From an uncultured bacterium (GTDB lineage Bacteria; Krumholzibacteriota; Krumholzibacteriia; Krumholzibacteriales; Krumholzibacteriaceae): 64,000 bases of DNA. A program made the position numbers and the translations under genes. The notes under the pieces were generated by a model. It did not search any database, had not been told where the DNA came from, and saw only the letters and a list, made by a program, of their open reading frames with translations. Positions 218-10,213 of the stretch are shown here, in pieces; the stretch's first letter is position 1; the number at the start of each line of letters is the position of its first letter. The DNA lies in assembly GCA_964599375.1 (NCBI GenBank), contig CAZREW010000017.1:3926-67925 (forward strand). The letters run 5' to 3'.

Positions 218-246
218 TTGATGCCGCTTCCGTGGTGTGGTATATT
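218..246 (+). promoter_or_regulatory. sigma70-type promoter: TTGATG, 17-nt spacer, TGgTATATT extended -10
   Basis: TTGATG at 218-223, 17-nt spacer, TG at 238-239 and TATATT at 241-246. It sits in an AT-rich stretch just upstream of the HTH-zeta gene. Confidence 0.5.
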
Positions 247-278
247 ATATACCACACATGCCGAAGAGGAGACTGATC

Positions 279-1253
279 ATGTTCGGCGAGATGGTCAAGG
301 CGCGTCGGGCTGAGCTGGGGCTGACACTCAGGGAGTTCTGCCGAAGGCTCGGGGAGGACCCGAGCAACTGGAGCAAGGTCGAGAGGGGGATCCTGAGGCC
401 GCCCGTTAGCAGGGAGAAGCTTCGGCGTATCGCCGGGGTCCTGGGCATCAGCGAAGGCTCGGCCGAGTGGGAGGGGCTGGTCGACGCGGCTGTCATCGGC
501 TCCGGGGAGATCCCCTCGTATGTCATGGAGAACAGGGAGGTGTACGGCACACTTCCCGAGCTGTTCAGGGCGATCGGGGGCGCTTCCCTGACGGCCGAAG
601 AGATCCGGCGGATGGTCGAACGGTTGAAAGAAGGCGGCCTGGATGATACGGATGGGGTCGTCGATGAGCGGACTGAAAGAAAAGCGATAGTGGTGGCCGG
701 GCCCAACGGCGCAGGGAAGACGACCTTCGTGCGCGAATATCTCGTCGGGCATGACATCCCGTACATCAGCGCCGACGCGATCGCCGAGAGCATGACCGGT
801 GGAGATATAAGAGATGTCGCCCTGTCTGCCGGAAAGATGTTTTTCGCAGAACTGCGTGACGCTGTTTCAGCAGGCAGGAGCTTCGCCGTGGAGACCACGC
901 TCTCGGGGATGGGATTCCGGCGCCTTCTAAACGCAATGAAACAGGAGCGGTATGGAGTGAGTATCATCTTCATCTATCTCGATAATCCGGGGTTCTGCGT
1001 CACCAGGATCGTGGAGCGGACAAGAAGAGGAGGGCATCATGTGCCCGAGGGGGATGTGGTCCGGCGCTTTCACAGAAGTGTCGCCAATTTCTGGAAGATG
1101 TACAGGTTCGAAGCGGACGACTGGCATCTCGTATGTAATACAGCGCAGGAATTCATAGAGGTGGCCAGGGGATGCGGGGGCGAGCGCCTCGTGTTCGATC
1201 CGGAGTCTTGTGATGCATTGCTTGAATCGGAAGGATTGAGTGATGAAAAGTAG
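279..1253 (+). CDS. HTH_XRE DNA-binding domain fused to a zeta-toxin-like P-loop kinase domain
   Basis: N-terminus MVKARRAELGLTLREFCRRLGEDPSNWSKVERG is a classic XRE helix-turn-helix. Walker A is VVAGPNGAGKTTFV. The C-terminal part carries RIVERTRRGGHHVPEGDVVRRF, a zeta/PezT-type kinase signature. ATG 279 is preceded by AGGAG at 267-271. The ORF track starts at 237, but the SD fits 279. Confidence 0.75.
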   Translation: MFGEMVKARRAELGLTLREFCRRLGEDPSNWSKVERGILRPPVSREKLRRIAGVLGISEGSAEWEGLVDAAVIGSGEIPSYVMENREVYGTLPELFRAIGGASLTAEEIRRMVERLKEGGLDDTDGVVDERTERKAIVVAGPNGAGKTTFVREYLVGHDIPYISADAIAESMTGGDIRDVALSAGKMFFAELRDAVSAGRSFAVETTLSGMGFRRLLNAMKQERYGVSIIFIYLDNPGFCVTRIVERTRRGGHHVPEGDVVRRFHRSVANFWKMYRFEADDWHLVCNTAQEFIEVARGCGGERLVFDPESCDALLESEGLSDEK

Positions 1254-1437
1254 ACTGTTCGATCCCGGTTTCGCCAGGCAGTCTGCCGAGATCCGGCGGA
1301 TCGGCAGCCGGGCGGTCAAGAAGGCCCAGGAGGAAAACCGCCGGCTGGGCATCCCCAACACATACTTCATCAACGGGCATACGTACTACGAGCTTCCCGA
1401 CGGCACGCTCAGCCTCGAGGACCCGTGGGATAAATGA
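1243..1437 (+). CDS. small hypothetical protein (64 aa), translationally coupled to the HTH-zeta gene
   Basis: ATG 1243 overlaps the upstream stop (1251-1253). AAGGA lies 7 nt upstream. I recognise no domain. Its position suggests a partner or antidote of the kinase. Confidence 0.5.
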   Translation: MKSRLFDPGFARQSAEIRRIGSRAVKKAQEENRRLGIPNTYFINGHTYYELPDGTLSLEDPWDK

Positions 1438-1464
1438 AAGGTGTCTACGATCGGCCTCACCGCT

Positions 1465-1516
1465 GTCCACTTTCGGGGACGCGATTCTACTAAAGTGGAC
1501 ACTTTTCTCTTTTCTG
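1465..1516 (+). terminator. putative intrinsic terminator
   Basis: GTCCACTTT at 1465-1473 pairs with AAAGTGGAC at 1492-1500 (9-bp stem, 18-nt loop). It is followed by ACTTTTCTCTTTTCT. Confidence 0.45.
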
Positions 1517-1709
1517 ATGGTGTAACTCCTTATTCTACAATGGCGTGTTTCGGCACGTCTCATGCGATTAACCTTCTTTTGGGCCAGTGCGGCATGGGAG
1601 AGGTATGCCCTGCCGCGTTTCCGCCCGGCAGCCGGGGGATACGCCGATACGCGGCGGACGATCCGGCGGCCAGCCGCCCCGGCGCGGGAGATATCGACCG
1701 GAGCAACTT

Positions 1710-2262: not shown

Positions 2263-5200
2263 GTGGACGCAAAGCGAGAGAATAAGATATTCCTGTCGGT
2301 CCTCTGGGTGTTCCTCGTATCGGCTCTTGTATTCTTCTTTATCTACATCGCGGCAGGCAGGATCGGGCTCGCGCCCTCGGTCTGGTTCATGTTCCTGCTT
2401 CTCGACCTCGGCTTTATCATCTTTCTCTTCGTCCCGCTGCCGGGCAGGCAGAAGGCGGGCGGGAGGAAAGCGCCGCGCAGGCAGGAGTGGTACCCGCGCG
2501 ACCTCGGCGAGATCGTCGAGAAGCGAGGCGACGCCGTCTCCGAGGATCCCGGGATGCTAAGGCCCGGCAGGGCCGTAGGCCCCGTGCCCCTTATCCCCCT
2601 TCTGATACTCCTTGTCGTCATCCTGCTGGCCGCCCCGTTCGGGAGCGGCGAGGAGGCGTGGGACAAGAGGGAGACCGGCCGCCTCACCTCGATTTACGGC
2701 GAGGCGGCAGGCATGCTCGCCGGCCTCGAGAGCAAGCTCGGCGATGTCGGTGCCGAGGCGGCGGAGTTGCTCGGGCGCTGGGAGATCACGAAGTCCGACG
2801 ATCCGGCGCGGATCGAGATGATACACGCGATAGACTCGCTCGCCGCCTCGGCCTCGGCCGGGCTCGAGCCGGTCTCCGAGCTCGGCATACAGGTCTTCAA
2901 CGCGGGAGGGAACAGGCTCGCCTGGGGCGGGAGGCCGAGATACGACGGGCGCCAGGACACGAGGGCCGACGCGACGAAGCTGTTCATCGCCAGCGCGCGC
3001 CTCTTCACAGTGCTCGTGCGCGAGATCCCGCTCGAGTCGGGCGGAAGGGTCGTCGTCGACCTGCCGCTCGAGGTAAACTACAGGATAAGCAACCGGTTCC
3101 TGCGCAGCACGAGCCTCGGGGAGATCGTCGGCGCAAGGCACGGAGTCGACGTCGAGTTCAGCTACTGGATGGGGCGGCACGGCAGCCGCACGATCGAGGG
3201 CGAGGATGAGGGAGACATCCCGCAGGCGGCGAGGACCTCTGACGGAGCGGTAAGGGTGACGGGGCTGCTGCGTTCTGCGGACGGGCAGCCACTCGCCAGG
3301 CTCACGGTCCGAGGCGAGACGTACGAAGCGGCAGCGGCAGGCGCCGCGGGCAGGAGGGCCACGTGGGCCGGCCTGCTTCTGACCCTCTCCGTGATAGTGA
3401 TAGCCCGCTGGATCTACAACGGGTGGGGAAAGAGGAGGCCGGGCGGCGAGAGCAACCTGCGCGCATTCGCCAGGCGGGTCGTCCTGCTCGTCTTCTTCAT
3501 AGGGATAATCCGATATCTCCTGCTGCGGCTCGAGATGCCGGGCGGGATATTCGGGATAGACCTTTTCGACTCGGCGCTCTTCGCCGACGACGCGCCGGGC
3601 GGGCTGATGCGCACAGCGGGCGACTACCTCGTCTCGGCGGCGTTCCTGCTCGCGCTCGTCTTCGGGATCGTCAAGTCGTTCAGGACCTACTACGGCGGGA
3701 TACTCGAGAAACAGATATCGAGGGGCGCGCCGTTCGACGCGCTGCGCATGGCCGTCCGCGCGGTCCTCCTGGCCGCCGTGCTCGCCGGGGCGGCGTACGG
3801 TTCGACGCTCATCGTCTCGAGGACCGTGCTCAACTCGAACCCCAGGCTGATCGGTCTCGACGCGGGGTTCTTCAGCATCCCCGCGCTCACGCTTCACACG
3901 GCGCTGCTCTTCTCGGTGGCCGCCGTCTTCATCGCGGCCATCTTCCTCTTCAGGCTCCTTCTGAGCTGGGGAGGCGGGCCGAAGGGCGAAGCGCTGCTCT
4001 CGTCCGCGCTGGGCCTGGCCGCCGTCTATTTCCTTGTCCACCCGCACTGGTCGGCGCTCGTCGCGGCGGCGGCGCTGATCTTCCTTTCGGCGAGGATCTT
4101 CCCGCTCCTTCGCAAGGAGGAGGTCCTCTCGGTCGTCTTCGCGTCGTTCTTCCTCGTGCTGATCTGCTCGGTAGTGATATACGGGGTCGGAACGAAGGCT
4201 TACGACGAGATAAGGAGGGGAAAGATCGAGGAACTCGCGGGCGACATCAACGACCCGCAGGAGAACATGTTCGAGATGGCCCTGCAGTTCGGCATGGAGG
4301 AGATAGCCGCCGACAGGACGCTCGTCTCGAAGGCGATGTCGCATTCACAGTCGGCCGCGTTCGAGATATGGGCCGGGAGCGACCTGAGCGGGCTCGGCCG
4401 GCCGTGTGTCTTCGACGTCTACGACGCGGCGGGGGTGAGGTTCTCGAGCTTCTCGGTCGGCATCCCGTTCGAGATAGCCGGCGTCTTCGACGACGGGGGG
4501 TACCCGCTCGAGAAGACCGGCGTGCTCAGCGTCGAGCGCGACAGCGACTTCGGCAAGGTCTATTACTTCGTCGGCGTGGCACCGATCCGCCACCCGAGCG
4601 GTAGGCTCGCCGGGCGGGTCGAGGTCAAGTGGCCTTACCACTTCGAGAACCCTTCCATGCTTACCAGCGCGGGGCCGGCCGCTCCCGAGATACTGCGCAA
4701 CGTCGAGAGGGGCTCGGTGACGCCGAGGATAGACGAGCCGGAGAAGCTGCTGGTCGCGAGGGTCGAAGGTGGCCGCGTGCTCGAGTCCTCCGACCCGATG
4801 TTGCGCACCGGGACGCCGCTCGCGGGCAAGCCGGGGGAATGGTTCGTCTACGGCTCGGCCGAGGGGAAGTACTACTGCGTCTACATCCCGGGAGACGGGC
4901 CGTCGCAGTACATCGTCGGGTACCTCTCGCCCGGGCTGAACGGAAGCGTCCTGATGTGGGCGACAGTGATATCTGTCGACATAATGATAACGATAGCATC
5001 GCTGGCGCTCCTGTTGCTCGTGCGCAAGCTCCCATTCTTCGGGAGCGTCACGCCCGACGTCTCGCTGCGCGGCGGGCTCGGGTTCAGGCGCAAGCTCCTT
5101 CTCTCGTTCACCGTCGTATCGATGATACCGGTCCTGCTGATGGGAGTCTTCTCGTCGCGCTACATCCGGTACAGGTACAGGGCGGTCAGCGAGAGGGAGG

Positions 5201-7122
5201 CGTTCGAGGCGGCCTCGTCCGCGGGGGCGCTCGTGCGGCACGGAGTGCGGGCCGAGGCGGAGGCGTTCGCGCGGAGCAGCTATCTGAGCGACATGCTCCG
5301 GCCCGCCGGGGCGGATGAGGCGGAGGCGCACGAGTACGGGGATGCGCTCTTCACGATAGTCGATGCCGGCGGCGCGGTCATCCTCGATGACAGCCGATAT
5401 CCGGTCGACCAGGACAATCTGCCGACGATAAGGCAGGAGTCGCTCTCGGAGCGCGTGACGATAACCTGGGACAGGCCGGGGCTCTACGCAGGGACGGTGA
5501 TCCCTATCTCGCTGCCCGGCAGGCCCGGCGCGTACCTCTACTACCGCAGGAAACTCGACGACGATTTCATAGGAAGTACGGCGGCCGTGCTCGGCCGTAA
5601 CCTCAACGTATACTACAAGGGCTCGCTGGCGGCCTCGAGCGAGCGCGAGCTCTTCGTGGGCGGGTTTCTGCCGACCCTGCTCGCGCCGCGCACGTACGCC
5701 GACGTCGCGCTCGGGGGGAGCAGGACCGTGGTCACAAGCGAGTCGCTCGGTGACTACTCCTACCAGGTCTCGAGCATCGCGATGCCCTCGCTTACAGGCG
5801 GGGAGAGCGCGGTCCTCTCGGTGCCGCACCTCTTCAGGACCGCCATCGTGCGCAGCGAGGTGCTCAGGACCTCGGCCGTGCTGCTCGGGCTGCTCGCCCT
5901 GATACTCTGCGTGGCGGTCACGCTCGGCGTCTTCCTCGCGGGGAAGATATTCAACCCGATAGCGGCGCTGCGCGTCGGGACAAAGAGGATCATAAGAGGC
6001 GATCTCGAGTTCAGGCTCGAATCGGGGGCAACAGACGAGATCGGCGAGCTGGTCGACTCGTTCAATTCGATGACGTCGTCGCTCGCCACGGCTAGGCGCG
6101 ATCTGCTCGAGAGGCAGCGCTACCTCGCAGCGGTCCTCGACAACATGTCGACGGGCGTCATCTCGGCCGGGAGCGACGGCACGATAATGACGATCAATCC
6201 CGCAGGCGAGAGGATACTCGGCATATCCGCCGGGGAACTCGTCGGGCGCAAGGCGGCCAGGGCGGGGGACGCCCATCTGCGGGGCTTCTTCGACCTCTTC
6301 GCCCTCGAGACCGGCAAGACGATCGAGGGGGAGATCACGCTCGAGCAAGGCGACGAGCGCCGCACGCTGAAGACCGTCGTCGCGGGTCTCTCCGAGGGGG
6401 GAGAGAGGCTCGGCACAGTGATCGTCTTCGACGACCTCACCGAGCTGATACGCACGAAGAAACTCGCGGCGTGGATAGAGATGGCGCGGCAGATAGCGCA
6501 CGAGGTGAAGAACCCGCTCACTCCGATCAAGCTCTCGGCGCAGCTGATGCGCAGGGCGTACGACGCGGGGAGCGGCGAGTTCGGCGAGATATTCACGAGC
6601 GGGATAGAGACGGTCATCCAGCAGACTGAGATCCTCCGCCAGATAGCCTCCGAGTTCTCGAGCTTCGGCCGGGCCGTCGACCTCAGGCGCGAGACGGTCA
6701 GGCTCGACGAGTTCATCGGCAGCGTCATTGCGGGGTACCGCGGCGTAGAGGGTATAACGATCAGGTACGCGGGCGGCCCGGGCGCCGCCACGGCCGACCG
6801 GGAGGCGCTCAGAAGGATACTGGTCAACCTCGTTGAGAACGCCCTCGAGGCGATCTCGGGCGAGGGCGAGATCGTCGTCTCGCACGAGGTCGCCGGCGGC
6901 AGGGCAGTGATCAGCGTCACCGATACCGGGACGGGGCTCGCGGGGGATGCGGAGAAAAAACTCTTCGAGCCGTACTTCTCGACCAAGACGAACGGCACCG
7001 GGCTCGGGCTCGCGATATGCCAGTCGCTGGCGAACGAGATGGACGGCGAGATAGTGCTCAGGAACAGGGAGGACGCCCGGGGGGTAAAAGCGGTTGTGAC
7101 CCTCCCCGCGGCGAAGGATTAA
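2263..7122 (+). CDS. giant (1619 aa) multi-TM sensor histidine kinase with HAMP-PAS-HisKA-HATPase_c, NtrY-like
   Basis: Many TM helices in the first ~650 aa plus two later TM segments. HAMP-like KIFNPIAALRVGTKRIIRGDLEF...; H-box IAHEVKNPLTPIKLSAQLM at about nt 6490-6550 (NtrY-type); N-box LVENALEA; G-boxes DTGTGL and GTGLGLAICQ. Confidence 0.85.
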   Translation: MDAKRENKIFLSVLWVFLVSALVFFFIYIAAGRIGLAPSVWFMFLLLDLGFIIFLFVPLPGRQKAGGRKAPRRQEWYPRDLGEIVEKRGDAVSEDPGMLRPGRAVGPVPLIPLLILLVVILLAAPFGSGEEAWDKRETGRLTSIYGEAAGMLAGLESKLGDVGAEAAELLGRWEITKSDDPARIEMIHAIDSLAASASAGLEPVSELGIQVFNAGGNRLAWGGRPRYDGRQDTRADATKLFIASARLFTVLVREIPLESGGRVVVDLPLEVNYRISNRFLRSTSLGEIVGARHGVDVEFSYWMGRHGSRTIEGEDEGDIPQAARTSDGAVRVTGLLRSADGQPLARLTVRGETYEAAAAGAAGRRATWAGLLLTLSVIVIARWIYNGWGKRRPGGESNLRAFARRVVLLVFFIGIIRYLLLRLEMPGGIFGIDLFDSALFADDAPGGLMRTAGDYLVSAAFLLALVFGIVKSFRTYYGGILEKQISRGAPFDALRMAVRAVLLAAVLAGAAYGSTLIVSRTVLNSNPRLIGLDAGFFSIPALTLHTALLFSVAAVFIAAIFLFRLLLSWGGGPKGEALLSSALGLAAVYFLVHPHWSALVAAAALIFLSARIFPLLRKEEVLSVVFASFFLVLICSVVIYGVGTKAYDEIRRGKIEELAGDINDPQENMFEMALQFGMEEIAADRTLVSKAMSHSQSAAFEIWAGSDLSGLGRPCVFDVYDAAGVRFSSFSVGIPFEIAGVFDDGGYPLEKTGVLSVERDSDFGKVYYFVGVAPIRHPSGRLAGRVEVKWPYHFENPSMLTSAGPAAPEILRNVERGSVTPRIDEPEKLLVARVEGGRVLESSDPMLRTGTPLAGKPGEWFVYGSAEGKYYCVYIPGDGPSQYIVGYLSPGLNGSVLMWATVISVDIMITIASLALLLLVRKLPFFGSVTPDVSLRGGLGFRRKLLLSFTVVSMIPVLLMGVFSSRYIRYRYRAVSEREAFEAASSAGALVRHGVRAEAEAFARSSYLSDMLRPAGADEAEAHEYGDALFTIVDAGGAVILDDSRYPVDQDNLPTIRQESLSERVTITWDRPGLYAGTVIPISLPGRPGAYLYYRRKLDDDFIGSTAAVLGRNLNVYYKGSLAASSERELFVGGFLPTLLAPRTYADVALGGSRTVVTSESLGDYSYQVSSIAMPSLTGGESAVLSVPHLFRTAIVRSEVLRTSAVLLGLLALILCVAVTLGVFLAGKIFNPIAALRVGTKRIIRGDLEFRLESGATDEIGELVDSFNSMTSSLATARRDLLERQRYLAAVLDNMSTGVISAGSDGTIMTINPAGERILGISAGELVGRKAARAGDAHLRGFFDLFALETGKTIEGEITLEQGDERRTLKTVVAGLSEGGERLGTVIVFDDLTELIRTKKLAAWIEMARQIAHEVKNPLTPIKLSAQLMRRAYDAGSGEFGEIFTSGIETVIQQTEILRQIASEFSSFGRAVDLRRETVRLDEFIGSVIAGYRGVEGITIRYAGGPGAATADREALRRILVNLVENALEAISGEGEIVVSHEVAGGRAVISVTDTGTGLAGDAEKKLFEPYFSTKTNGTGLGLAICQSLANEMDGEIVLRNREDARGVKAVVTLPAAKD

Positions 7123-7166: not shown

Positions 7167-7646
7167 GTGAGAGATATGCTTAAACGTTTCTGTATGGCGT
7201 CATGTGTCGTTCCGTTATTGTCGGTGGCGTTCTGTGGAGAGTGCGCGGCCGGGGAGGACAAGTTGGCCGAAAGGCTAAAGGGGCCGCTTGTGATTACTGG
7301 CGCCCTGATCACCGGGGTGAATATCGCTATGACGGCGCACAACATTTCCGGGTTGCGCGCGGACACGCCGGGCAAGCTCGGAGGCGTAGGAGGGATGCTG
7401 CTCGGGTCGTACGGCGCCCTGTTCGGAGCCGCCTGCTTCTTCGTCCAGGAGCCGGTGTTTTTCATCACCGGCCTGGGGTGCACGGCGGCCGGCGTGGTCA
7501 CCGCGTATTACGGGGTGAAGACCCTGAAGGCCGTTCAGCGGAAATTTATCGAGGAGGAGGAGCGGGGTGTCGCCTTCAGCCCTGTCCTGATCGACGACGG
7601 GTCTGGAAGGCTCGAGCCGGGAGTGCAGGTCAGCTGGAGGTTCTGA
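7167..7646 (+). CDS. small hypothetical membrane protein
   Basis: Hydrophobic N-terminus and Gly-rich TM segments. It does not overlap any real + gene. The minus-strand ORF 7151-7501 is the antisense alternative. Confidence 0.45.
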   Translation: MRDMLKRFCMASCVVPLLSVAFCGECAAGEDKLAERLKGPLVITGALITGVNIAMTAHNISGLRADTPGKLGGVGGMLLGSYGALFGAACFFVQEPVFFITGLGCTAAGVVTAYYGVKTLKAVQRKFIEEEERGVAFSPVLIDDGSGRLEPGVQVSWRF

Positions 7647-7672
7647 GACAGGGAGCGTGAAAGGGCGGCATC

Positions 7673-8107
7673 GTGAAAAGGCTCGCGTGGATATTACTGG
7701 CTGTTCTGGCGGCGACTTCGTCGTGCGGAACGAGGTACGCTTACGATCCGGCCGAAGAGTTCGACGGGGCGATAGACCAGGCCACGCGCAAGGAGATGCG
7801 GGAGATAACCGGGGAGTTCTGGTGCAACGGGTACGGGGATTATTTCGCGCCCTATGAATTTGAAGAGATATGGTGCACGTCCGGCGGAGGGCTCTGCCCG
7901 AGGTACGAGGCCGAGATCGACAGGCTGTTCGAAGAGGGGGTGCTCGACGGCGGGGACCCGTACGTCGAGGTCACGCTTTCAGGCTTCATCGGGGTCCCGA
8001 TCGACTGGTACTATGAGCTCGACTGTGCGCGGGTGTTCTACGTCACGAGCATCGACAGGCTGGTTGTTAGAAACAAGGGTCCGGTGATCTACGGAAATGA
8101 GGAATAG
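7673..8107 (+). CDS. lipoprotein, Cys-rich
   Basis: MKRLAWILLAVLAATSSCG is a lipobox. The mature part has several Cys (CNGYGDY...WCTSGGGLCPRY). Confidence 0.5.
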   Translation: MKRLAWILLAVLAATSSCGTRYAYDPAEEFDGAIDQATRKEMREITGEFWCNGYGDYFAPYEFEEIWCTSGGGLCPRYEAEIDRLFEEGVLDGGDPYVEVTLSGFIGVPIDWYYELDCARVFYVTSIDRLVVRNKGPVIYGNEE

Positions 8108-8861
8108 ATCTATATATGGCCGGCGTTCTCGAGCGCGTGTGGGCGCGTTCGTGGCGGCCGCATTGTTACTGGCAGTGTGTGGCAGCGCCGGTGCCCAGGG
8201 ACACAGACCTGATGGGATGGATACCCCCGCCGCGAAGCGCGGCGGGGCGGGCAGGGCGGCGTCCGACGAGTACCGGGTGACGGTCGCCCGGCTCAAGTAC
8301 GGGGGCGGCGGGGACTGGTACTCGGATCCCTCGTCGCTGCCGAACTTCCTCTCGGAGTTCGAGAGGCGCACCGGGATACCGACCGCGTCGATGGAGAAGG
8401 TCATAGAGCCGGGGGATCCGGCGCTCTCCTCGTTCCCGTTCCTCTACATGACCGGGCACGGGAACATCTCTTTTACCGGCACCGAGCTCGAGCGGCTCCG
8501 CGCGCACCTTCTCGGGGGCGGGTTCCTCTACGCGGACGACAATTACGGGATGGACAAGTCGTTCCGCAAGGCCGTCACCGAGCTCTTCCCCGAGCGCGAG
8601 CTCGTGGACGTGCCGTTCAGCCATCCGATATACAGCTGCTTCTACCGGCTCGACGGGCCGCCGAAGATACACGAGCACGACGGCAAGCCTCCCGAGGGGC
8701 TGGGGATCTTCGACGGGGACAGGCTGATGCTCTTCTACACCTACGAGAGCGACGTCGGCGACGGGCTCGAGGACCCCGACGTGCACGGCGATCCTCCAGA
8801 CAAGAGAGAGGCCGCGATGCGCATGGCGGTCAACGTCTTCTATTACGCTATGACGAGGTGA
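8097..8861 (+). CDS. secreted DUF4159-like (GATase1-like fold) protein
   Basis: Signal peptide ...AAALLLAVCGSAGAQ. Motifs YGGGGDWYSDPSSLPNF and FLYMTGHGNISFTGTELERLRAHLLGGGFLYADD recall DUF4159 family members. The assignment is from memory, not a search. Confidence 0.5.
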   Translation: MRNRSIYGRRSRARVGAFVAAALLLAVCGSAGAQGHRPDGMDTPAAKRGGAGRAASDEYRVTVARLKYGGGGDWYSDPSSLPNFLSEFERRTGIPTASMEKVIEPGDPALSSFPFLYMTGHGNISFTGTELERLRAHLLGGGFLYADDNYGMDKSFRKAVTELFPERELVDVPFSHPIYSCFYRLDGPPKIHEHDGKPPEGLGIFDGDRLMLFYTYESDVGDGLEDPDVHGDPPDKREAAMRMAVNVFYYAMTR

Positions 8862-9052: not shown

Positions 9053-10213
9053 ATGCGGACATATGAGCGGACACATCCCTGGATAACTTATACTCTCGAT
9101 TTGAACAATGCCCGGTATATCCATTGGCTTATGCTGGGTGAAGCCCAGTCAAAATGCAAACATTTTGAGCGGGTGCCCCTTCTCCCCGCTGCAGCGGAGC
9201 GTCTGTACAGCGTCTTTCTCGCGAAGGGAGTGCTGGCGACAACAGCGATCGAAGGAAATACTCTTACTGAGGATGAGGTCATGAGGCACCTGGAAGGCAG
9301 GCTCGAGCTCCCCCCTTCCAAGGACTACCTGCTTCAGGAGATCGACAATATCATCGAAGCCTGCGGGGAGATCGGCGACCATGTACTGAAGGCTGAAGTC
9401 GCTGACATCTCCATCGAGACGGTCAAGCGATACAACAGCCTAGTCCTGAAGGACCTGCCGCTGGCTGAACATGTCGTCCCGGGCGAGATCCGTGATTATG
9501 TCGTAGGCGTGGGGCCCTACAAGGGTGCGCCTCCTGACGATTGTGAATACCTTCTCTCCGAGATGTGCGCCTGGATCAACCGGAGACTGGATGCCCCCGC
9601 CGAATACGGGATGGCGTTCGGGATACTGAAAGCCATCCTGGCCCATCTGTATCTTGCCTGGATACATCCTTTCGGGGATGGAAACGGCAGGACCGCGCGG
9701 CTTGTCGAGTTCCATCTGCTCCTGTCCGCGGGAGTCCCCGCCACGGCGGCACATCTCCTGAGCAGTCATTATAACCAGACCAGGACTGAGTACTACAGAC
9801 AACTCGGCCTGAGCCATAAGGCAGAAAACAATGTCTTCCTGTTCCTGGAGTACGCTCTCAGAGGATTCATCGACGGGCTCAAAGAACAAATCGACATCAT
9901 AAAGGACCAGCAGATGACGGTTCACTGGATAAACCATGTGCACACGGTGTTTAAAGACAGAGACAGCACGGCTGATCTTAGAAGGAGAAGGCTGGTGATC
10001 GACCTGTCCCAGATAGAGGAGCCCGTGCCCGTGTCCAGCATAAGGCACATTTCGCCGAGGATCGCTGAAGCATACGCGTCAAAGACGGAAAAAACGGTGA
10101 GGCGCGATCTGAACGCACTCGAATCGATGAACCTGATCGTCAAGTCCCGTGACGGAGTCAAGGCGCACAAGGAAGTCATGCTCGCATTTCTTTCGCCGGC
10201 TAGGAAAGGCTGA
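9053..10213 (+). CDS. fic: Fic family protein (class II, N-terminal inhibitory helix, C-terminal wHTH)
   Basis: Fic motif HPFGDGNGRTAR. N-terminal TTAIEGN matches (S/T)xxxE(G/N). The gene and its 190-nt upstream spacer are much more AT-rich than the flanks. Confidence 0.85.
   Translation: MRTYERTHPWITYTLDLNNARYIHWLMLGEAQSKCKHFERVPLLPAAAERLYSVFLAKGVLATTAIEGNTLTEDEVMRHLEGRLELPPSKDYLLQEIDNIIEACGEIGDHVLKAEVADISIETVKRYNSLVLKDLPLAEHVVPGEIRDYVVGVGPYKGAPPDDCEYLLSEMCAWINRRLDAPAEYGMAFGILKAILAHLYLAWIHPFGDGNGRTARLVEFHLLLSAGVPATAAHLLSSHYNQTRTEYYRQLGLSHKAENNVFLFLEYALRGFIDGLKEQIDIIKDQQMTVHWINHVHTVFKDRDSTADLRRRRLVIDLSQIEEPVPVSSIRHISPRIAEAYASKTEKTVRRDLNALESMNLIVKSRDGVKAHKEVMLAFLSPARKG

Follow-up and report, generated by a model that had tools for sequence, protein, structure and literature searches.

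How is a toxin-antitoxin operon regulated when its kinase toxin itself carries the DNA-binding domain, and when the small gene that could encode its antitoxin lies downstream rather than upstream? This question is raised by a compact two-gene unit at positions 218-1516 of a 64,000-nucleotide stretch of contig CAZREW010000017.1, from an uncultured bacterium of the Krumholzibacteriaceae; the whole stretch is called the window below. An initial annotation of this DNA had described an inverted, autoregulated toxin-antitoxin-like module, in which an N-terminal XRE-type helix-turn-helix (HTH) is fused to a zeta-toxin-like kinase (gene A) and a small open reading frame (ORF; gene B) overlaps the end of the first gene. 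Our comparative analysis supports the inverted reading, as both the kinase fold and the conservation of the small ORF spoke in its favour. On balance, we favour an autorepressed, reverse-order zeta-like module of the toxin-antitoxin (or abortive-infection) type, with the regulator fused to the toxin. This layout is apparently new, within a known kind of bacterial toxin-antitoxin system and not as a new kind of system.

Homology searches show gene B to be a real gene: a word-index search retrieved 49 homologs, and an exhaustive profile search (E ≤ 1e-3) returned at least 575 cluster representatives, at 50% identity, for the subtype of the window alone. Pfam, NCBIfam, PHROG and PADLOC hold no family for gene B or for seven divergent relatives. 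The small ORF is nevertheless kept in homologous loci, as the initial annotation had asked, and follows both fused and stand-alone kinases, including at loci where the gene callers had missed it. In 51 metagenomic loci with 30-40% identical kinases, nearly every member of the window kinase's branch was followed by an ORF of 49-80 residues, usually with an ATGA overlap. These downstream ORFs share a helix with the pattern 'A(L/M)(R/K)xAVxxA...G.P', then a hairpin with the pattern '..W.NGKVV..P'.

The pairing of the two genes was also counted across the kinase tree. A member of the gene B family lies between -22 and +81 nt from the kinase stop codon in 35 of the 36 subfamily loci with enough downstream sequence, versus 1 of 16 in a sister branch associated with ParD-like antitoxins, the count being made with a hidden Markov model (HMM) partly trained on the ORFs that it counts. 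A non-circular comparison with hhalign, of the window-type family against 21 divergent partners, gave a probability of 90% (E 1.5e-6) over residues 16-54. In the ParD-like comparison, the gene B family produced a single weak HMM hit (L054, E 0.021). A resemblance of gene B to the C-terminal part of ParD-like antitoxins ('...G..V..L.E.G.L....PDGT') was considered and rejected, with an hhalign probability of 0.6%. The two genes overlap by 4-14 nt in most relatives and by 11 nt in the window, which suggests translational coupling of gene B to gene A.

In three lineages (P0011, found in two samples, P0289 and P0309), the kinase and the B protein are fused in frame, although P0289 and P0309 could be frameshift artefacts. 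P0011 naturally joins all three parts, XRE module, kinase and small protein, in one chain of 387 residues (L063:261-1424 and L064:501-1664), and is followed by a gene for a 371-residue protein and a DUF5131 gene. AlphaFold2 (AF2) modelling of P0011 with an unpaired alignment predicted the B part as a helix (330-356) and a hairpin (361-372), with predicted local distance difference test (pLDDT) values of 90-95, and the predicted template modelling score (pTM) rose from 0.58 to 0.71 with the fusion.

Decayed copies of the unit were observed in two relatives. In a Candidatus Krumholzibacteriota metagenome-assembled genome with the same DUF456 synteny (L011:1115-2047), gene A is broken, and the operator and a 66-residue small ORF are intact; the XRE module (128 residues) ends in a stop codon and only the C-terminal 108 residues of the kinase remain, the region of the P-loop, D166 and E205 being deleted. 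On a 2.3-Mb contig of another relative (L076:3540-4010), gene A is reduced to its last ~20 codons, without operator. There, gene B (64 residues, 89% identical) is intact with its GGAAGGA Shine-Dalgarno sequence and its 3' flank, and is followed by the same gene for a 171-residue protein. Loss of the kinase with retention of B is the asymmetry that a toxin-antitoxin pair would predict.

The kinase domain of gene A was analyzed by profile and fold comparison. Pfam AAA_33 matched residues 137-258 (E 3.7e-8, 34.2 bits). Zeta_toxin (PF06414), the family proposed as a check in the initial annotation, also matched, with a lower score that passed the cutoff marginally (23.4 versus 22.3 bits), and most gene A homologs have precomputed PF06414 hits. 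In a Foldseek search of the PDB, the top twelve matches were AvrRxo1-ORF1 (4z8q, E 2.6e-7), PezT (2p5t) and zeta (1gvn, 3q8x), ranked above PFKFB kinase domains and bacterial polynucleotide kinase; a housekeeping nucleoside monophosphate or gluconate kinase, the outcome that would have spoken against a zeta-like protein, was not the best match. A sequence profile of 121 homologs, when compared with the PDB, matched the Clostridium thermocellum polynucleotide kinase best (4gp7, E 1.2e-5) and PezT more weakly (E 0.007). The domain therefore forms a distinct family within the zeta/AAA_33 kinase clan and is not a classical zeta toxin.

All the residues that are invariant in the 121 homologs are present in the window copy: N143, G144, G146, K147, D166, E205, T207, R243, R247, G251, G252, D259, R262, R263 and R266, together with the nearly invariant H253. 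Judged by its spacing and by the alignment of Rv0366c published in PMC6362051, D166 would be the equivalent of the catalytic D67 of zeta and D66 of PezT. The GTxR motif through which zeta toxins bind UDP-N-acetylglucosamine (UDP-GlcNAc, UNAG) is absent, the corresponding segment being ETTLSG (E205-T-T207-L-S-G210). UDP-GlcNAc is therefore probably not the substrate. The RGGHHVP motif is real, with G251 and G252 invariant and H253 nearly so, and marks the short Rv0366c-type family, not classical zeta/PezT. Of the features noted in the initial annotation as zeta/PezT-like, the Walker A motif is present, whereas the RGGH motif could not be kept as a PezT feature. In the same way, the zeta identity held at the level of the superfamily and not for the classical UNAG kinases, the protein falling in the short ParD-like/Rv0366c-type branch.

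Twelve proteins share the full fused architecture of gene A, at 64-98% identity, and thousands of stand-alone proteins of ~195 residues match its C-terminal half at 40-62% identity. The latter are named 'predicted ABC-type ATPase' (JGI) or, for plasmid homologs, 'zeta toxin family protein' (PGAP), which places the domain at the sequence level in the ~195-residue "zeta toxin family / COG4185" group. Kinase homologs were found in 556 plasmid records, mostly named 'zeta toxin family protein' among the matches listed, and in only 4 phage records, with weak scores. A literature search on COG4185 returned no papers.

The fusion of an XRE-type HTH to the N-terminus of the kinase was confirmed by a Pfam HTH_31 match (residues 2-59, E 1.7e-8) and by the twelve full-length homologs of the same architecture. 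A weak match to the PADLOC capH model covers residues 2-118 (E 7e-5), and no sequence match to PezA was detected for this module, which is probably a dimerising repressor. The AF2 model is confident for the HTH and the kinase domain (pLDDT 83-94 for residues 1-70) and poor for residues 86-130, falling below 50 at residues 121-130, in the linker. Fused homologs differ in the linker sequence, and P0012 lacks part of it. Homologs of the XRE module also exist as free-standing proteins of 117-150 residues (38-56% identity, most at 45-56%, covering 82-92% of a 130-residue query), and these precede unrelated partners, namely an M78 peptidase, an ARPP-1 gene and an unknown protein of 187 residues. Since the free-standing homologs of ~120 residues precede such different partners, the helical subdomain (residues 62-117) is unlikely to be specific to the kinase and more probably serves in dimerisation, as in CapH. 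Free-standing loci of this type were observed at L067:2682-3073, L068:2585-3630 and L070:3001-4396, each ahead of an unrelated effector. Among these partners, the M78 peptidase adjoins a DUF6088/AbiEii pair and the S subunit of a type I restriction-modification system, and the ARPP-1 protein adjoins a PIN gene.

What the XRE module might bind is suggested by a perfect 23-bp palindrome that overlaps the -10 element together with the probable start of transcription. The window has no second copy, even when three mismatches are allowed, and none is expected from shuffled sequences. Its core, GTGGTA-N7-TACCAC (237-255), occurs 13 times in 383 kb (the window and the fetched loci), each time just upstream of a gene for an XRE module: ten of these sites belong to fused loci and three to stand-alone XRE loci (L067-L069), with none elsewhere in the 383 kb. 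A close variant, in which the spacer is shorter, is present in L070 and L072; no such motif was found at the stand-alone kinase loci. In fused loci, the palindrome has invariant arms around a variable centre that also serves as the -10 element. Because motif and module co-occur at 13 of 13 sites, with invariant arms and a variable centre, there is strong comparative evidence that the XRE module would be a sequence-specific autorepressor, the helical subdomain being its generic, probably dimerising part. Module and operator together look like a portable repressor-operator cassette. An HTH combined with a palindrome overlapping its own promoter, as expected of a CapH-like autorepressor, is thus present by sequence, the binding itself being predicted. 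These data strengthen the idea of autoregulation already put forward for the locus.

The mechanism that we favour would operate as follows. The toxin would be the C-terminal ~190 residues of gene A, a presumed ATP-dependent P-loop kinase from the short 'zeta toxin family' branch, to which Rv0366c and the MHSD3 toxin also belong. When free, this kinase would most likely phosphorylate an essential small molecule or a nucleic-acid end, leading to growth arrest. The antitoxin would be the product of gene B, a translationally coupled 64-residue helix-plus-hairpin protein without DNA-binding domain, which would bind and neutralise the kinase. The DNA-binding function usual for antitoxins would instead reside in the toxin chain, whose N-terminal XRE module, probably as a dimer, would bind GTGGTA-N7-TACCAC over the -10 element, so that the bicistronic operon would be repressed in proportion to the toxin's own concentration. 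In the cell, such a module could serve addiction, stress stasis or phage defence. Sequence and comparison establish the architecture, the pairing of A with B, the joint occurrence of operator and XRE module, the class of fold, the presence of every family-invariant catalytic residue and the pattern of decay, whereas toxicity, neutralisation by B, binding to DNA, substrate and role are inferred.

Several observations weigh against this mechanism. In addition to the partial circularity of the HMM census and the marginal membership in Zeta_toxin, gene B has no detectable relation to the ParD-like partners of the sister branch. Its family profile, compared with all PDB chains, gave no match at E ≤ 10 to epsilon, PezA or Arc1 (AvrRxo1-ORF2 included), with chance S-layer hits only, and PADLOC has no model for the module, either kinase or B. 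The AF2 evidence for B consists of pLDDT and pTM values. Moreover, several relatives, with A proteins only 64-70% identical, keep the module at a single conserved position in the chromosome, which is stabler than typical mobile toxin-antitoxin loci. This position, between the DUF456 gene and the genes for the 171-residue protein and a sensor kinase in several relatives, would suit a vertically inherited housekeeping or stress operon. A would then be a self-regulated metabolic or repair kinase (for a nucleotide, a cofactor or polynucleotide 5' ends) and B its specificity or activating subunit. The polynucleotide kinase domain as best profile match in the PDB, the score of AAA_33 above that of Zeta_toxin and the repeated kinase-B fusions, which fit an obligate two-subunit enzyme, all agree with such a role. 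We nevertheless consider a non-toxic operon rather unlikely. Indeed, the distribution is patchy, with the module absent or decayed at the same position in close relatives (L076, L011), and its other contexts adjoin genes of phage or mobile-element type (ORF6N, DUF5131). Plasmids and defence islands hold many homologs, kinases of the sister branch, which are paired with ParD-like antitoxins, are toxic in experiments, and the persistence of B after loss of the kinase would be odd for a mere activating subunit.

The remaining alternatives concern the roles of the HTH and of B. EzeT shows that zeta toxins can carry an antitoxin in cis, and PezA resembles the N-terminus of gene A in that a helical domain, which in PezA binds the toxin, comes after an XRE HTH. 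The HTH and helical region of gene A could then be a PezA-like antitoxin that blocks the ATP site and represses the operon, with B as an accessory, and the helical subdomain does gain confidence in the deeper AF2 model. This arrangement is unlikely, given the absence of a sequence match to PezA, the occurrence of the entire 120-residue module as a free-standing protein before unrelated partners, and the closest stand-alone kinases (56-62% identity), which have no N-terminal or upstream partner and still have gene B. The same stand-alone kinases, devoid of any HTH, argue against a type VII-like reversal in which B would be the toxin and A an enzymatic antitoxin with a DNA-binding domain, phosphorylating B. 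Kinase antitoxins exist (TakA/TglT), and A does carry an HTH, as antitoxins do. However, B remains whole in the two genomes whose kinase has been lost or cut short, and homologous kinases are the toxic component in both systems tested (PMC6362051, PMC5728571), so that this reversal seems very improbable. Finally, the operon could be a phage-defence switch, silenced by a CapH-like repressor until a signal of infection or DNA damage, such as cleavage of the linker by a protease, lifts the repression and releases the kinase from DNA, so that the infected cell would be killed or arrested. The weak capH match across the whole N-terminal module is consistent with this, as are the predicted disordered, protease-accessible linker between repressor and kinase, the free-standing XRE homolog that shares the operator and whose neighbours are an M78 peptidase, an AbiEii/DUF6088 pair and the specificity subunit of a restriction-modification system, and the kinase-B pairs found in defence neighbourhoods of plasmid pSYSG. 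On the other hand, no M78/CapP-type protease adjoins the module in the window (one stands beside the stand-alone XRE homolog in L068), PADLOC models cover neither kinase nor B, and the phage hits are few and weak. We give this switch a small chance, slightly below that of an antitoxin in cis; it is in any case a statement on biological role, compatible with a toxin-antitoxin mechanism and not an alternative to it.

The features of the proposed toxin-antitoxin module are collected in Table 1.

Table 1. Features of the two-gene unit, with their positions in the window.
Feature	Position	Strand	Description
Sigma-70-type promoter	218..246	+	-35 TTGATG (218-223), 17-nt spacer, -10 TATATT (241-246), TG at 238-239 (extended -10 TGgTATATT 238-246)
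Candidate operator	235..257	.	Perfect 23-bp palindrome GTGTGGTATAT-T-ATATACCACAC; overlaps -10 and likely transcription start
Gene A Shine-Dalgarno	264..271	+	AAGAGGAG, read from sequence
Gene A	279..1253	+	324 aa, XRE module and short zeta-like P-loop kinase; ATG 279 to TAG 1253
N-terminal module, aa 2-120	282..638	+	XRE helix-turn-helix (aa 2-59) and helical subdomain (aa 62-117)
Linker, aa ~121-133	639..677	+	Variable, low confidence; pLDDT <50 at aa 121-130
Kinase (putative toxin) domain, aa 134-324	678..1250	+	AAA_33, Zeta_toxin and fold matches
Walker A, aa 141-148	699..722	+	GPNGAGKT, from kinase domain sequence
Gene B Shine-Dalgarno	1229..1235	+	GGAAGGA, within 3' end of gene A; read from sequence
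Gene B	1243..1437	+	64 aa, helix and beta-hairpin protein, probable antitoxin; ATG 1243 to TGA 1437
Hairpin and T-rich tail	1464..1516	+	Possible terminator; 10-bp perfect stem 1464-1473 / 1492-1501, 18-nt loop

The unit is placed between a gene for a DUF456-type membrane protein (stop codon at 160) and a gene for a secreted 172-residue protein (1710-2228). Its G+C content (0.59-0.60) is slightly under that of the neighbouring genes. The promoter of the initial annotation is present, and is the only sigma-70-like site found in a scan of positions 1-2400; one hit is also the count expected from shuffled sequences, and the scan by itself is no proof. The layout TTGAC(G/A)-17 nt-TAnAnn is, however, kept in 7 homologous loci, including L001, L003, L010, L063, L065 and L066, and GAGAGGAGG is conserved upstream of gene A in homologous loci. 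A longer ORF starting at GTG-237 was ruled out for gene A, as its homologs begin at MFGE, which corresponds to the ATG at 279. The description of a second gene overlapping the stop codon of the first, with a Shine-Dalgarno sequence of its own, was correct. Long antisense ORFs cross gene A (for example 245-973, minus strand); all the homology found for this region is on the plus strand, with no separate homology search aimed at the antisense ORFs.

The hairpin downstream of gene B was also recovered, at 1464-1501, and its role as a terminator is plausible at best. Indeed, the terminator scan did not call it, it is non-canonical, and its folding z-score is only -1.56. Among the relatives L010, L065 and L076, the sequence is conserved without any compensatory change in the hairpin. 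About 110 nt 3' of gene B, including the hairpin loop GAGGACGCGATT, showed ~84% mean column identity in a three-way alignment (window 1430-1540; L010:1215-1325; L065:3920-4030; L076:3880-4010), and the coding genes of these loci share only 64-70% protein identity. This conserved stretch may be a promoter or leader of the next gene instead of a terminator. An Rfam search of positions 1-2300 gave no match. A structured RNA at 1464-1501 is not claimed, given the lack of compensatory changes and the position of this region in the common intergenic stretch before the syntenic gene for the 171-residue protein.

The comparisons point to an organism that is probably within Krumholzibacteriota or close to it. 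In several relatives, SecD-SecF-DUF456 borders the slot of the module at one end, and the genes for the 171-residue protein and a 1619-residue HAMP/PAS histidine kinase border it at the opposite end. Between the module and the gene for the 171-residue protein, relatives hold an Omp85-family gene on the opposite strand or a DUF3800 gene (L001:5195-6295, L003:4698-5459), and the window holds nothing, which suggests a local insertion/deletion hotspot next to the module. In the window, the 172-residue protein has a signal peptide and no Pfam match, and precedes a 1619-residue membrane sensor histidine kinase (2263-7122; HAMP/PAS/HisKA/HATPase in the L002 homolog); this pair is syntenic in all relatives examined. 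Two small ORFs without Pfam match follow (7202-7660 and 7673-8107), ahead of a gene for a DUF4159 protein (8097-8861, E 1.3e-62), which lies between the histidine kinase gene and a Fic gene. The Fic gene (9053-10213) lies in the kilobase of the window with the lowest GC (0.535); its 386-residue product combines a Fic domain with a DeoR-type HTH at the C-terminus. The suggestion that the module shares an accessory stretch with the Fic gene did not hold: Fic is 7.6 kb away, beyond the syntenic sensor kinase gene and in a separate low-GC dip, and a single accessory island holding both was rejected on synteny and distance.

Other copies of the module are found in different contexts, adjoining ORF6N or DUF5131 genes. 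Cultured organisms have kinase-B pairs as well. On a Legionella plasmid, such a pair adjoins a Tn3 transposase. On the Synechocystis plasmid pSYSG (L073:1197-3504; NC_005231.1 1920-4655), a 'zeta toxin family protein' is followed by an overlapping 59-residue hypothetical partner. This pair is flanked upstream by a nucleotidyltransferase gene, with an 8-nt overlap, and on its other side by a DarTG-like DUF4433/macro pair, with a restriction-modification S subunit alongside. A 2016 survey of Synechocystis toxin-antitoxin systems listed these pSYSG genes only as 'related to TA modules', its criteria being unmet (PMC4963859).

Zeta/PezT-type kinases are widespread toxins, and a 2023 survey reported many 'orphan' members of this type after examining upstream genes alone (PMC10532202). 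With somewhat less than even confidence, we propose that gene B represents a large family of minimal antitoxins that has escaped annotation and would supply the partners missing from many 'orphan' short zeta-like toxins, and that in this lineage autoregulation would have been restored by fusion of the XRE-operator cassette, with repression tracking the toxin. If so, the downstream partners would have been overlooked because earlier surveys looked only upstream, and a conserved downstream family would explain many orphans and add a new antitoxin fold. Repression of the operon would follow the concentration of the toxin and not that of the antitoxin, inverting the usual logic of type II systems, among which a toxin bearing the operon's repressor domain would be an unusual regulatory design. 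The portable cassette, with the same operator before unrelated effectors, would provide an example of modular assembly of conflict systems. The category would be unchanged, namely a toxin-antitoxin-type module of a known superfamily.

The literature searched for HTH-zeta fusions or downstream zeta antitoxins yielded only AvrRxo1-Arc1, EzeT, PezAT and the ParD-like pairs, and no description of an XRE cassette fused to a zeta-like kinase was found in it. Among the closest known systems are the ParD-like pairs. Kinases of the sister branch belong to the ATPase family of gene A (tblastn E 1e-13 to 1e-15 with gene A), and in 8 of 8 cases the gene upstream of them, with a 4-nt overlap, codes for an antitoxin of the ParD_like family (PF11903, best E 6.8e-19); an upstream ParD_like antitoxin is absent from the window and from all 36 loci of the kinase subfamily of gene A. 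Both in Rv0367c/Rv0366c (PezAT-Mtb; PMC6362051, PMC6504116) and in Mycobacterium sp. MHSD3 (PMC5728571), the kinase causes a growth arrest that the ParD-like protein relieves. These toxins share with gene A the short ~195-residue kinase, with GPNGAGK[ST], an Asp ~20 residues later, a Glu, an Arg and the His of GGH. For Rv0366c, which also lacks GTxR, GPNGAGKS, D36, E75, R116 and H122 match K147, D166, E205, R247 and H253, as judged from the spacing of the published residues. The difference lies in the partner, which here is downstream, 64 residues long and without DNA-binding domain, the XRE HTH being on the toxin.

A downstream antitoxin has a precedent in the zeta family, the AvrRxo1-Arc1 pair of Xanthomonas (PMC4938570). 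AvrRxo1, a NAD 3'-kinase of the zeta family, is the best structural match (4z8q); its gene comes first, a small gene lies directly downstream, and, as with B in L011 and L076, the antitoxin is kept when the toxin decays, arc1 staying intact behind avrRxo1 pseudogenes (PMC4938570). However, AvrRxo1 has 421 residues with a type III secretion signal and no HTH, and Arc1 is a helical protein of 98 residues, unrelated in sequence to gene B. The kinases of PezAT and omega-epsilon-zeta share the P-loop fold class of the gene A kinase (2p5t, 1gvn). Autoregulation of PezAT likewise involves an XRE-type HTH, and the regulator, antitoxin and toxin functions proposed here match those of omega-epsilon-zeta. 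In contrast to these systems, the regulator is fused to the toxin, the antitoxin is downstream, ETTLSG replaces GTxR and identity is 13-16%. No upstream epsilon or PezA antitoxin, and no match to either, was found in the window; as the initial annotation had noted, the toxin-like gene comes first, preceded only by the end of the DUF456-type gene and the promoter.

Two further systems resemble parts of the module. EzeT, the single-chain epsilon-zeta of E. coli, combines a zeta-type kinase and an extra N-terminal domain in one polypeptide, and the natural kinase-B fusions P0011, P0289 and P0309 are formally single chains of the EzeT kind. The N-terminal domain of EzeT is, however, the antitoxin, whereas that of gene A appears to be a generic XRE repressor module common to unrelated systems. 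This module recalls CapH-CapP and the XRE-COG2856/M78 systems, in which a repressor cassette is placed before effectors of conflict systems, as seen here with the M78 peptidase and ARPP-1 genes. Fusion of Xre to its effector is common for COG2856 (PMC2701414); in the window, the cassette is fused to a zeta-like kinase.

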